64,000 nt of DNA from Escherichia phage vB_EcoM-UFV13. The stretch is from the sequence record NC_031103.1; one strand, given 5' to 3'. Shown piece after piece: positions 35,693 through 37,760 of this stretch. The notes below the pieces were generated by a model. The model worked only from the letters and a program-made list of their open reading frames with translations, was not told where the DNA came from and made no database searches. Position numbers and translations under genes: made by a program. Position 1 is the stretch's first letter, and each line of letters starts with the position of its first letter.

Positions 35693-36567
35693 TCAACACC
35701 GATACGACGCCACATCTCAACGACTTGGTTACGGTCATCAATAGCTAATTTCACATCAAAGTGCGGTGCGATATGTTTCCAGAAAATTTCTTCTTTAACT
35801 ACATCATCTTTACGGGTATCACCTTGTTCGCGTTGACATTGCATAACTAATGGAACACCAGCAACATCCTCAACCCATTTACGGGTCATACGATAATATT
35901 TCGTTGGGTCTTTTTCGGTTCCACTTTCGCGGCCTGAAACGACTACGATGTAATATCCTTGCTTATCGTACATCTTAGCTAGTTCAACTACCATTGGGTT
36001 GATGACATCAGTATCACACTTCTCAAGGTCATAAGGACCGCGGCCGTCCATTTTTGCTAATGTGCCATCAACATCAAAAATAACTGCTTTTGGTTTACCA
36101 GGAGTTCCTTTGTATACCGGAAGACCCAGATACTCTCGCATGTTTTTATACATTGAGCGTAAAACATCAATTGGTACTGCTTTAGTTCCACGTTTTGAGT
36201 TACGTTTAACTAGCTCAGTCCAAGGAACATCAAACACTTTATATTCAACTTTCCAGCCGTATTCTTTGGCAAAAGTTTCCCATGCCAGGCGACGTTCGGG
36301 ATTCAAGTTAGTGTCTGAAATAATTACTCCCTTGACAGAATCTCCGCCGTACAGAATACTTTTAGCTGTATCAAACTGCATACCAGTTACGATACCTTCT
36401 TTCTTTTTGGTATACTTATACTCATCGTGTTCTTCATGACCCATGATGGATTGACGATAATCATCACGATTGATATTATAAAACCCAGGATTTTTAGCAA
36501 TAAATTCACGAGCCCAAGTACTCTTACCTGAACCAGGACAGCCAATAGTCAAAATAATCTTTTTCAT
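35662..36567 (-). CDS. pseT: Polynucleotide 5'-kinase/3'-phosphatase
   Basis: 301 aa from the second ATG; Walker A GCPGSGKS; phosphatase motif DVDGT. Confidence 0.95.
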
Positions 36568-36887
36568 CATTTAATTCCTAAGAAAACTTCAAGAATACGA
36601 ATATTATGCTCACGCCGCCCTTTATATAATTCAGCTGTTGATTGATTCACCGATTTGCTCTGAACATTAGATGAAATAAATTTTATCATGTGATTTTTAA
36701 GCTGATACATATCAAGCCCACGGGCTTTTGCTTCTTTTCGTAAAGCTTTACCAGCGTCATCTAAAGCTTTCGCAGGGTCTTCATCATTTAATACTACCCC
36801 ACGGTCCAAATCCATATATACTGCACCATTACATGCATCAATGTAACGGTCTGAACATTCAATATAACGTTCTAACAGAGTTTTCAT
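36567..36887 (-). CDS. Hypothetical protein, 106 aa
   Basis: ORF whose stop overlaps the pseT start. Confidence 0.5.
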
Positions 36888-37120
36888 TTATTTTTCTCAA
36901 CTAATGATTGAATATAATCATGCAGCTCTTTAGATGCTTTACCCCACTTATTTTGATATTCATTTTTAAGATTAGCACGTGATTGAGCTAATAAAACATC
37001 ATTAGTTGGAGGTAAAGATTCTAACCGTTGAATCTGGCGTCCATAAATCATTGCAGCCATCTCGGATTCATAAATCAATCCTTTGAGATGTTCAAATTGA
37101 TGCCATGAAATCATTTGCAT
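36884..37120 (-). CDS. Hypothetical protein, 78 aa
   Basis: ORF in series. Confidence 0.45.
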   Translation of the reverse strand: MQMISWHQFEHLKGLIYESEMAAMIYGRQIQRLESLPPTNDVLLAQSRANLKNEYQNKWGKASKELHDYIQSLVEKNK

Positions 37121-37410
37121 TTATCCTCTTTTAACTCTTGACGATAATAACATATCATAGTTTTCTGATCATGTACATATCGTTTTACATCATTAAGCCA
37201 AATGCGAAATTCCTGGGAATCTTCAAATGGCATACCGACCCAAGCTTTACCATCAATAACTTTAACTTGCCAAGATAGTTTAGCTTCATCATATGACTTT
37301 ATTTGTACAGGCCAATTAGGATGAACTGTTTCTTTCTTTACTTCTAGAGGCTTTGTCGAACAACCAACTAGAAGACCAATAGATAATATTACTGCTGATA
37401 GTTTAATCAT
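37111..37410 (-). CDS. Outer-membrane spanin lipoprotein (o-spanin; T4 PseT.2-type)
   Basis: 99 aa; lipobox signal MIKLSAVILSIGLLVGC; sits next to a TM plus coiled-coil partner, as for the T4 spanin pair pseT.3/pseT.2. Confidence 0.65.
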   Translation of the reverse strand: MIKLSAVILSIGLLVGCSTKPLEVKKETVHPNWPVQIKSYDEAKLSWQVKVIDGKAWVGMPFEDSQEFRIWLNDVKRYVHDQKTMICYYRQELKEDKCK

Positions 37411-37760
37411 TTAGAAAGGTCCTGGATGTCTTCTGCGAACTTGTTGAAGGAGTTGTTGATTTGTTTTTCAACCAATCCTGGCTTATGAGCCACCACATCC
37501 GCCTTCTTTGCGTCTTTGCGCAGTTTTTCATTTTCACGCTCAATAGCAGCAATTGCCTCACGATTTTTATTATTCATCGCATCAATATAATTATACTGAA
37601 TTCGCAAATTATTTAATGCTAAAGCGTTTTCATTGGCCGTTTTTGTAATTTCTACAACAGACGTTTCTAATCTTTCAATTTTATTTTTTAAAATTAAAGA
37701 AGTTCCGCCCAATGCAATTACAATTAATAGCAAGCCTGCTGTCGTATTACTTAATTGCAT
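37407..37760 (-). CDS. Inner-membrane spanin (i-spanin; T4 PseT.3-type)
   Basis: 117 aa; N-terminal TM helix LLLIVIALGGTSLIL followed by a coiled-coil periplasmic domain. Confidence 0.65.
   Translation of the reverse strand: MQLSNTTAGLLLIVIALGGTSLILKNKIERLETSVVEITKTANENALALNNLRIQYNYIDAMNNKNREAIAAIERENEKLRKDAKKADVVAHKPGLVEKQINNSFNKFAEDIQDLSK

Follow-up and report, generated by a model that had tools for sequence, protein, structure and literature searches.

The closest described systems to the genes considered here are pseT.3 and pseT.2 of phage T4, which encode the inner-membrane (i-spanin) and outer-membrane (o-spanin) components of a two-component spanin and complement a lambda Rz/Rz1 double amber mutant (Kongari et al. 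2018, PMC6139136). The T4 spanin genes are located in a prereplicative block, far from the holin and endolysin genes. The T4 i-spanin has no periplasmic Cys, and lysis is lost in the C87S and C98S mutants of PseT.2; both Cys residues are essential in T4 (PMC6139136). In a transposon-sequencing preprint (HIDEN-SEQ, bioRxiv 10.1101/2025.11.20.689424), pseT.3 of T4 is classed as 'Essential' and pseT.2 as 'Strong fitness defect', and the o- and i-spanin genes of phage Bas37 are both classed as 'Strong fitness defect'. The corresponding interval, from alc to pseT, was analyzed in a stretch of 64,000 nucleotides (nt) of Escherichia phage vB_EcoM-UFV13 (NC_031103.1), referred to here as the window. 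All of the genes discussed are on the minus strand. The interval is very probably an ordinary alc-pseT segment of a Tequatrovirus genome, a reading that takes in a T4-type spanin pair, the loss from T4 of a gene for a protein of 106 amino acids (aa), and a proposed role for that gene.

The i-spanin gene, an ortholog of pseT.3, is located at 37407-37760 and encodes a 117-aa product that matches phrog_739 ('Rz-like spanin') with an E value of 2.5e-37. The product is identical to T4 PseT.3 at 108 of 117 positions (92%), and the T4 and Shigella phage Shfl2 orthologs are labelled 'Rz-like spanin' in RefSeq. The hydrophobic stretch TTAGLLLIVIALGGTSLIL at residues 6-24 has a mean Kyte-Doolittle value of 2.11, the maximum for any 19 residues (max KD19), which predicts a single N-terminal transmembrane helix. 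Residues 20-117 have weak matches to coiled-coil Pfam families and are predicted to form a helical or coiled-coil periplasmic domain. An earlier note on this DNA had assigned an N-terminal transmembrane helix and a coiled coil to this open reading frame (ORF), and both the hydropathy value and the weak coiled-coil matches agree with that description. Nine substitutions separate the protein from T4 PseT.3, mostly in and around the transmembrane domain.

The o-spanin gene, an ortholog of pseT.2, is located at 37111-37410 and encodes a 99-aa product that matches phrog_812 ('Rz-like spanin') with an E value of 3.5e-43. It is identical to T4 PseT.2 at 98 of 99 positions (99%). By pattern inspection, the N-terminus MIKLSAVILSIGLLVGC contains an L-V-G-C lipobox with Ser at +2, so the lipobox reported in the earlier note is present. 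The predicted lipoprotein signal is MIKLSAVILSIGLLVG|C, and the residue at +2 is not Asp, which fits sorting to the outer membrane. The protein has Cys residues at 17, 87 and 98, of which Cys87 and Cys98 are periplasmic. The T4 reference NC_000866 has an ambiguous N in codon 86 of pseT.2, which is annotated as 'Ile or Thr'; the window has Ile at this position.

The pair shares with T4 PseT.3/PseT.2 the gene order, the sizes of both products, the N-terminal transmembrane domain, the LVGC lipobox, the Cys-free i-spanin and the two periplasmic Cys residues of the o-spanin. The i-spanin stop and the o-spanin start overlap as ATGA in both phages (at 37407-37410 in the window), giving a separated architecture of adjacent genes, and the pair is located between alc and pseT.1, distant from the holin and endolysin. 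The epitope peptides ERENEKLRKDAKKA and WLNDVKRYVHDQKT of PMC6139136 are both unchanged in the window proteins. The difference from the T4 pair lies mainly in the nine i-spanin substitutions, and no functional difference is expected. The proposal in the earlier note that these ORFs form a spanin pair like T4 pseT.3/pseT.2 is therefore borne out by orthology to an experimentally validated spanin (PMC6139136). The assignment of the pair as a T4-type two-component spanin is supported, with outer-membrane disruption taken from the T4 experiments and the near-identity of the proteins. As known for the T4 proteins, the i- and o-spanin would together span the periplasm as a complex, which would be covalently stabilized through Cys87 and Cys98 of the o-spanin and would disrupt the outer membrane as the last step of lysis.

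The overall mechanism and the membrane topology are also those of lambda Rz/Rz1, whose mutants the T4 pair complements. There is, however, no meaningful sequence similarity to the lambda proteins. The T4-type genes are separated whereas those of lambda are embedded, and the T4-type o-spanin is structured (beta-alpha-beta) whereas that of lambda is proline-rich and unstructured. A further difference from lambda is that the disulfides of the T4-type system are confined to the o-spanin.

Two small genes lie between the spanins and pseT. The first is the ortholog of pseT.1. The second, at 36567-36887, encodes the 106-aa protein and belongs to the RB32ORF217c or phrog_2364 family, which it matches over its full length (residues 1-106 against profile positions 1-105 of 105) with an E value of 2.1e-58. 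ATGA overlaps join it to both neighbors, at its start with the stop of pseT.1 and at its stop with the first ATG of pseT. The earlier note had counted one ORF more here than in T4, and this count is correct. The T4 RefSeq annotation has no gene between pseT (134002-134907) and pseT.1 (134908-135135, 75 aa), and lists pseT.2, pseT.3 and alc after them. Alignment of the interval with the T4 pseT-alc segment likewise shows that T4 lacks the 106-aa ORF, so that the ORF numbers differ. The complete T4 genome of 168,903 bp, rebuilt from five pieces for searches with the family hidden Markov model (HMM) and tblastn, contains no homolog of the 106-aa protein (best family-HMM E value of 0.037, tblastn E value of 1.9).

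In a three-way alignment of the window, T4 and Shfl2, the segment missing from T4 is bounded by two start codons, that of the 106-aa ORF and that of pseT. The alignment and the junction sequences show that both ends carry the same 7-nt minus-strand microhomology, ATGAAAA, with the left copy at the start of the 106-aa ORF (36881-36887) and the right copy at the start of pseT (36561-36567). It is most likely, judging from these sequences, that T4 lost the gene through a deletion of about 320 bp between the ATGAAAA repeats at the two start codons. Four genera carry the gene at this site or beside it, which, taken with the microhomology, makes gene loss in the T4 lineage the most economical reading. 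The T4-type junction was counted with an 80-nt probe across T4 pseT.1/pseT, with GenBank/RefSeq duplicates included. Coverage of the probe reached 80% in 34 records, but four of the matches listed were split into two pieces about 380 nt apart, and only about 30 records have the junction in one piece. The one-piece records are mainly T4 isolates, T4T, RB55 and RB59; fPS-90 and the Pu-Krd-SF series are among the few others.

The family is far more widespread than the T4-type junction. A tblastn search matched 702 phage records, T2 among them, and coverage was 80% or higher in every case. Since the family is present in about 700 phage records, T4 is the exception at this locus and not the window. 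The Shfl2 copy (Shfl2p223) is 99% identical and is annotated as 'similar to Enterobacteria phage RB32 orf217c'; the name RB32ORF217c is used in the LR746311 annotation and by vB_SsoM_113 for its copy, and RB69ORF231c is a shorter relative. An index of 5.8 billion proteins contains 41 homologs, all on T-even-like contigs. The homolog immediately precedes pseT in Tequatrovirus (DalCa, TadeuszReichstein), Dhakavirus (KIT01) and Tegunavirus (fHe-Yen9-01), whereas in Mosigvirus (SF) one 63-aa ORF lies between the family gene and pseT. Shfl2, vB_SsoM_113, DalCa, TadeuszReichstein, KIT01 and fHe-Yen9-01 have the family gene in the same context, ahead of pseT within the alc-pseT block. The gene would thus be an old, widespread and dispensable accessory gene of the Tevenvirinae, deleted in T4 and a few relatives. 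No paralogs were found elsewhere in the window or in T4, and a literature search for RB32ORF217c, ORF217c and Shfl2p223 found no paper.

Like Shfl2p223, RB69ORF231c and bas37_0056, the window ORF is a member of this family located between pseT.1 and pseT, and nothing of note sets it apart. It is in the commonest 106-aa allele class; among the other alleles, the loop is shorter (99-100 aa) or the C-terminal half differs (103 aa). The extra ORF belongs to an already catalogued and widespread family of hypothetical proteins, the spanins are textbook orthologs of validated T4 genes, and there is nothing new in the interval. The result is of modest use: T4 cannot be taken to represent its genus here, since T4 and a few relatives have lost a gene that most related phages keep.

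AlphaFold2, run with an alignment of 23 sequences, predicts that the 106-aa protein forms a four-helix bundle (helices 2-25, 38-55, 60-76 and 82-102) with a mean predicted local distance difference test score (pLDDT) of 88.5 and a predicted template-modelling score (pTM) of 0.80. The loop at residues 23-34 is of low confidence in the model, is predicted to be disordered and coincides with the indel-rich part of the alignment. No informative fold match was found for the predicted structure. The protein has an isoelectric point of 8.55, a max KD19 of 0.57 and neither a hydrophobic segment nor a signal peptide. Since a hydrophobic segment is absent, the protein is presumably soluble and cytoplasmic.

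The 106-aa gene is 66-83% identical to other Tequatrovirus alleles, compared with 90-99% for its neighbors. The ratio of nonsynonymous to synonymous substitution rates (dN/dS) is 0.26-0.50, compared with 0.03-0.25 for the neighbors. These ratios indicate that the gene is under purifying selection, yet evolves faster than its neighbors. The dN/dS values and the confident model also indicate that the ORF is a real coding gene. For its first 164 nt, the allele of Bas43 and Bas37 has about 93% DNA identity to the window type; beyond this point it diverges sharply, which indicates recombination inside the gene and mosaic alleles. Its C-terminal half resembles Dhakavirus-type sequence (VELRVQ/IQLLK). 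The C-terminal LGIK of the family is invariant, and its codons overlap both the pseT start and the AGGA Shine-Dalgarno sequence; therefore, part of its conservation may be imposed at the DNA level.

Every junction from alc to pseT is an overlap of ATGA or longer, and the ATGA overlaps suggest translational coupling of the small ORFs. A candidate early (sigma-70-type) promoter is located on the minus strand in the rnlA-alc gap at 38286-38314. It consists of GTTTACA, 17 nt containing a TG, and TACAGT, with a scan score of 9/12 and an extended -10 TG. A similar element, GTTTAC...TGTGATATTAT, is present in the cd.3/cd.2 gap and is annotated as an early promoter in T4. The late-promoter motif TATAAATA does not occur on the minus strand between 32843 and 48157. 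The candidate early promoter and the absence of a late promoter fit the known but unusual place of the T4 spanins in a prereplicative block (PMC6139136). A pattern search for MotA boxes found none on the minus strand near the interval, terminator-like matches are confined to the non-coding strand and are as frequent as expected by chance, and an Rfam scan of 35000-39600 found no RNA family.

We propose, with low confidence, that the 106-aa protein is a cytoplasmic protein-binding modulator with a host-specific benefit. It would be made before replication and would act by binding another protein, and its variable loop and mosaic C-terminal half would reflect adaptation to different hosts. If this is true, the gene adds one more small protein to the anti-host repertoire of T-even phages. 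Bas37 is Escherichia phage KarlGJung, in which the match at 40070-40381 equals the coordinates given for bas37_0056. In the transposon data this gene, with 27 of its 30 TA sites hit by insertions, belongs to the 'Non-essential' class (HIDEN-SEQ, bioRxiv 10.1101/2025.11.20.689424).

Several observations weigh against the proposed role or the history that accompanies it. In the supplementary tables of the preprint, of which three of the six Bas37 host comparisons were covered, bas37_0056 has no conditional phenotype, with log2 fold changes of 0.08 in CFT073, -0.02 in CFE299 and -0.32 in sheet S5 (adjusted p = 1 in all three). Transfer of these data is limited by an identity of only 66% between the Bas37 and window alleles. 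The 106-aa protein has no match in Pfam, NCBIfam or PADLOC, and an exhaustive profile search of 1.84 billion representative proteins returned about five true relatives together with low-complexity helical matches. The promoter assignments are consensus matches only. The direction of the indel, as a loss in T4, is inferred from parsimony and the microhomology rather than from a rooted phylogeny. The gene identities in the interval are not contradicted by any of the evidence.

A more specific form of the host-specific modulator proposal is unlikely, though it would account for several features of the family. It holds that the RB32ORF217c-family protein is a host-specific counter-defence or host-takeover factor, and that the loop at 23-34 and the recombining C-terminal half diversify to track a variable host target. 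This would explain the retention of the gene beside pseT in four genera of the Tevenvirinae and its faster evolution. It would also account for the absence of the gene from laboratory T4 and for its dispensability on E. coli K-12.

Records of the BASEL collection label the homologs 'putative homing endonuclease' (bas43_0056 of TadeuszReichstein, bas37_0056 of KarlGJung, and those of AdolfPortmann and FelixPlatter). Presence/absence polymorphism of free-standing endonuclease genes is common in T-even genomes and is shared by the Seg-type genes and the 106-aa gene. The ORF could therefore be a homing endonuclease or a decayed Seg-type GIY-YIG relic, and its patchiness a result of endonuclease mobility instead of a T4 deletion, but this is very unlikely. 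The best match of the family HMM in T4 is SegC (residues 41-92, E value of 0.037, 10.8 bits), which is non-significant. In this hmmsearch match, helices 2-3 of the 106-aa protein resemble the GSGxxxxxAxKKYGxxNF segment of the GIY-YIG domain. The likeness extends over a 30-residue motif, AGKALRKxAKxxGLD..xxxHxIKF in the 106-aa protein and GSGxxxxxAIKKYGxxNFxxxIxxF in the Seg proteins. A comparison by hhalign with nine T4 Seg/I-Tev proteins gave a probability of only 1.45% over 30 columns, so there is no significant profile match. The GIY and YIG motifs are absent, and the N-terminal 25 residues are predicted to be helical. The predicted fold is all-alpha without strands and not the alpha/beta fold of GIY-YIG domains, and the protein is well under most Seg proteins in size. 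No nuclease family match was found, and Pfam returned nothing at E<=0.1. An active homing endonuclease is largely refuted, since the motifs, the profile match and the alpha/beta fold are all wanting. The BASEL label appears to be based on a short motif-level likeness to a GIY-YIG helix. It is not supported for the family and should not be propagated for RB32ORF217c proteins.

The position of the gene might instead point to a functional partner of PseT, for example in tRNA repair that counters anticodon nucleases. In three genera the family gene immediately precedes pseT, and in Mosigvirus one 63-aa ORF comes between them. The place of pseT.1, in contrast, is taken by other ORFs in Dhakavirus (KIT01) and Tegunavirus (fHe-Yen9-01). 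The ATGA overlap between the 106-aa stop and the pseT start also suggests translational coupling of the two genes. However, T4 PseT functions without a 106-aa homolog. In the CFE299 comparison of the HIDEN-SEQ tables, one of the three covered, Bas37 PseT has a log2 fold change of -1.90 (adjusted p 0.00000) whereas the adjacent homolog has -0.02 (p 0.95). Since PseT is conditionally required in CFE299 and its neighbor is not, a PseT-partner role is disfavored and is highly improbable.

It is extremely unlikely that PseT.1, the 106-aa protein or both are accessory lysis factors that regulate the adjacent spanins. The two genes adjoin the spanins in the same transcription unit and have overlapping stops and starts. 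Both are, however, non-essential, whereas the spanins have strong fitness defects, and T4 lyses normally without the 106-aa gene. The pseT.1 gene is not conserved beside the spanins in Dhakavirus or Tegunavirus. In addition, neither protein should reach the periplasm, since both lack a signal peptide and a hydrophobic segment. Finally, the chance that the 106-aa ORF is a random open reading frame or an annotation artefact is negligible: it is small and without a known domain, but it has full-length homologs in 702 records, dN/dS of 0.26-0.50 at synonymous divergence (dS) of up to 0.47 and a confident AlphaFold2 prediction (pLDDT of 88.5), and it fits exactly between the start/stop overlaps.

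The pseT.1 ortholog is located at 36884-37114 and encodes a 76-aa protein that matches phrog_2347 with an E value of 3.7e-42 and is identical to T4 PseT.1 at 74 of 76 positions (97%). The longest ORF reaches 37120 (36884-37120, 78 aa). Translation most likely begins at 37114, where the ATG and the o-spanin stop share an ATGA, and yields the 76-aa product; this start matches the T4 annotation (75 aa) better than the longest ORF. The two small ORFs of 106 aa and 78 aa in the earlier note are therefore both real, but the second is likely two residues shorter. The gene has the same place as in T4, downstream of the o-spanin, and differs by one additional residue at the C-terminus, which results from a 1-nt difference in the A-run that immediately precedes the stop. 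At the 3' end (36884-36900), a single-nt difference in or next to this A-run alters the C-terminus and the junction with the next gene among the three phages. The window reads GAGAAAAATAAATGA (76 aa, ATGA overlap), T4 reads GAGAAAAAATAAATG (75 aa) and Shfl2 reads GAGAAATAATAAATG (74 aa, 3-nt gap).

Homologs of PseT.1 carry PF26888 in precomputed annotations. The AlphaFold2 model is a two-helix antiparallel hairpin (helices 4-33 and 40-75) with a mean pLDDT of 94.0, and no PDB match was found for it at E<=0.001. The protein has no signal peptide or hydrophobic segment, with a max KD19 of 0.28 compared with 0.57 for the 106-aa protein. Paralogy of the two proteins was rejected, with an hhalign probability of 0.11%. 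Both T4 pseT.1 and its Bas37 counterpart, bas37_0057, are non-essential (HIDEN-SEQ, bioRxiv 10.1101/2025.11.20.689424). The slot between the o-spanin and pseT differs by genus. Mosigvirus (SF) has the additional 63-aa ORF, Dhakavirus (KIT01) has a 160-aa ORF at the position of pseT.1, and Tegunavirus (fHe-Yen9-01) has ORFs of 104 aa and 57 aa there.

The surrounding genes form a tightly packed minus-strand block that runs, from upstream to downstream, through denA (39496-39930), rnlA (38319-39479), alc, the ORFs of 117, 99, 78 and 106 aa, pseT, cd.5, cd.4 and cd.3. The gene assignments in the alc-pseT interval agree with the T4 and Shfl2 annotations. The first gene of the packed unit is alc (37751-38257), the inhibitor of host transcription, which matches Pfam ALC with an E value of 4.3e-91 and is identical to T4 Alc at 162 of 168 positions. 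The 3' end of alc and the i-spanin start share 10 nt. The pseT gene (35662-36570) encodes the polynucleotide 5'-kinase/3'-phosphatase, with Pfam matches to HAD_PNKP (3.8e-59) and AAA_33 (2.3e-23) and identity to T4 PseT at 286 of 302 positions. Its AGGA Shine-Dalgarno sequence is in the preceding TTAGGAATTAA, within the conserved LGIK C-terminus of the 106-aa protein. The gene has tandem ATGATG starts at 36565-36570, of which the first gives 302 aa and overlaps the 106-aa ORF stop as ATGA and the second, which is the T4 start, gives 301 aa; the length of PseT is thus 301-302 aa.

A megablast search of 35400-38400 against 50,697 phage records matched 640 records, 495 of them with at least 80% coverage of the stretch. 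The best match is Shfl2, a Tequatrovirus, with 99.2% identity over 100% of the query, so the window is from a T-even (Tequatrovirus) phage genome. Shfl2 has a 175-aa ORF (RB32ORF214c-like) between cd.3 and cd.2 for which tblastn found no match in the window. The cd.3/cd.2 gap of the window (34933-34993) is of the T4 type, with 61 nt and an early-promoter-like element. Since the 175-aa ORF of Shfl2 is absent there, the window phage is a mosaic that is Shfl2-like at pseT.1/pseT and T4-like at cd.3/cd.2.

The cd.4 ortholog is located at 35272-35472 and encodes a 66-aa protein (phrog_2360) that is identical to T4 Cd.4 at 64 of 66 positions. Its Bas37 ortholog, bas37_0053, is non-essential on K-12 in the HIDEN-SEQ supplement and is not mentioned in the main text of the preprint. 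Among the host comparisons covered, bas37_0053 has a mild depletion in CFE299 (log2 fold change of -2.26, adjusted p 0.31). In one clinical-isolate comparison, given on the sheet after CFE299, it is strongly depleted (log2 fold change of -5.84, adjusted p 0.00000). The cd.4 ortholog may be an unrecognized host-specific or anti-defence gene.

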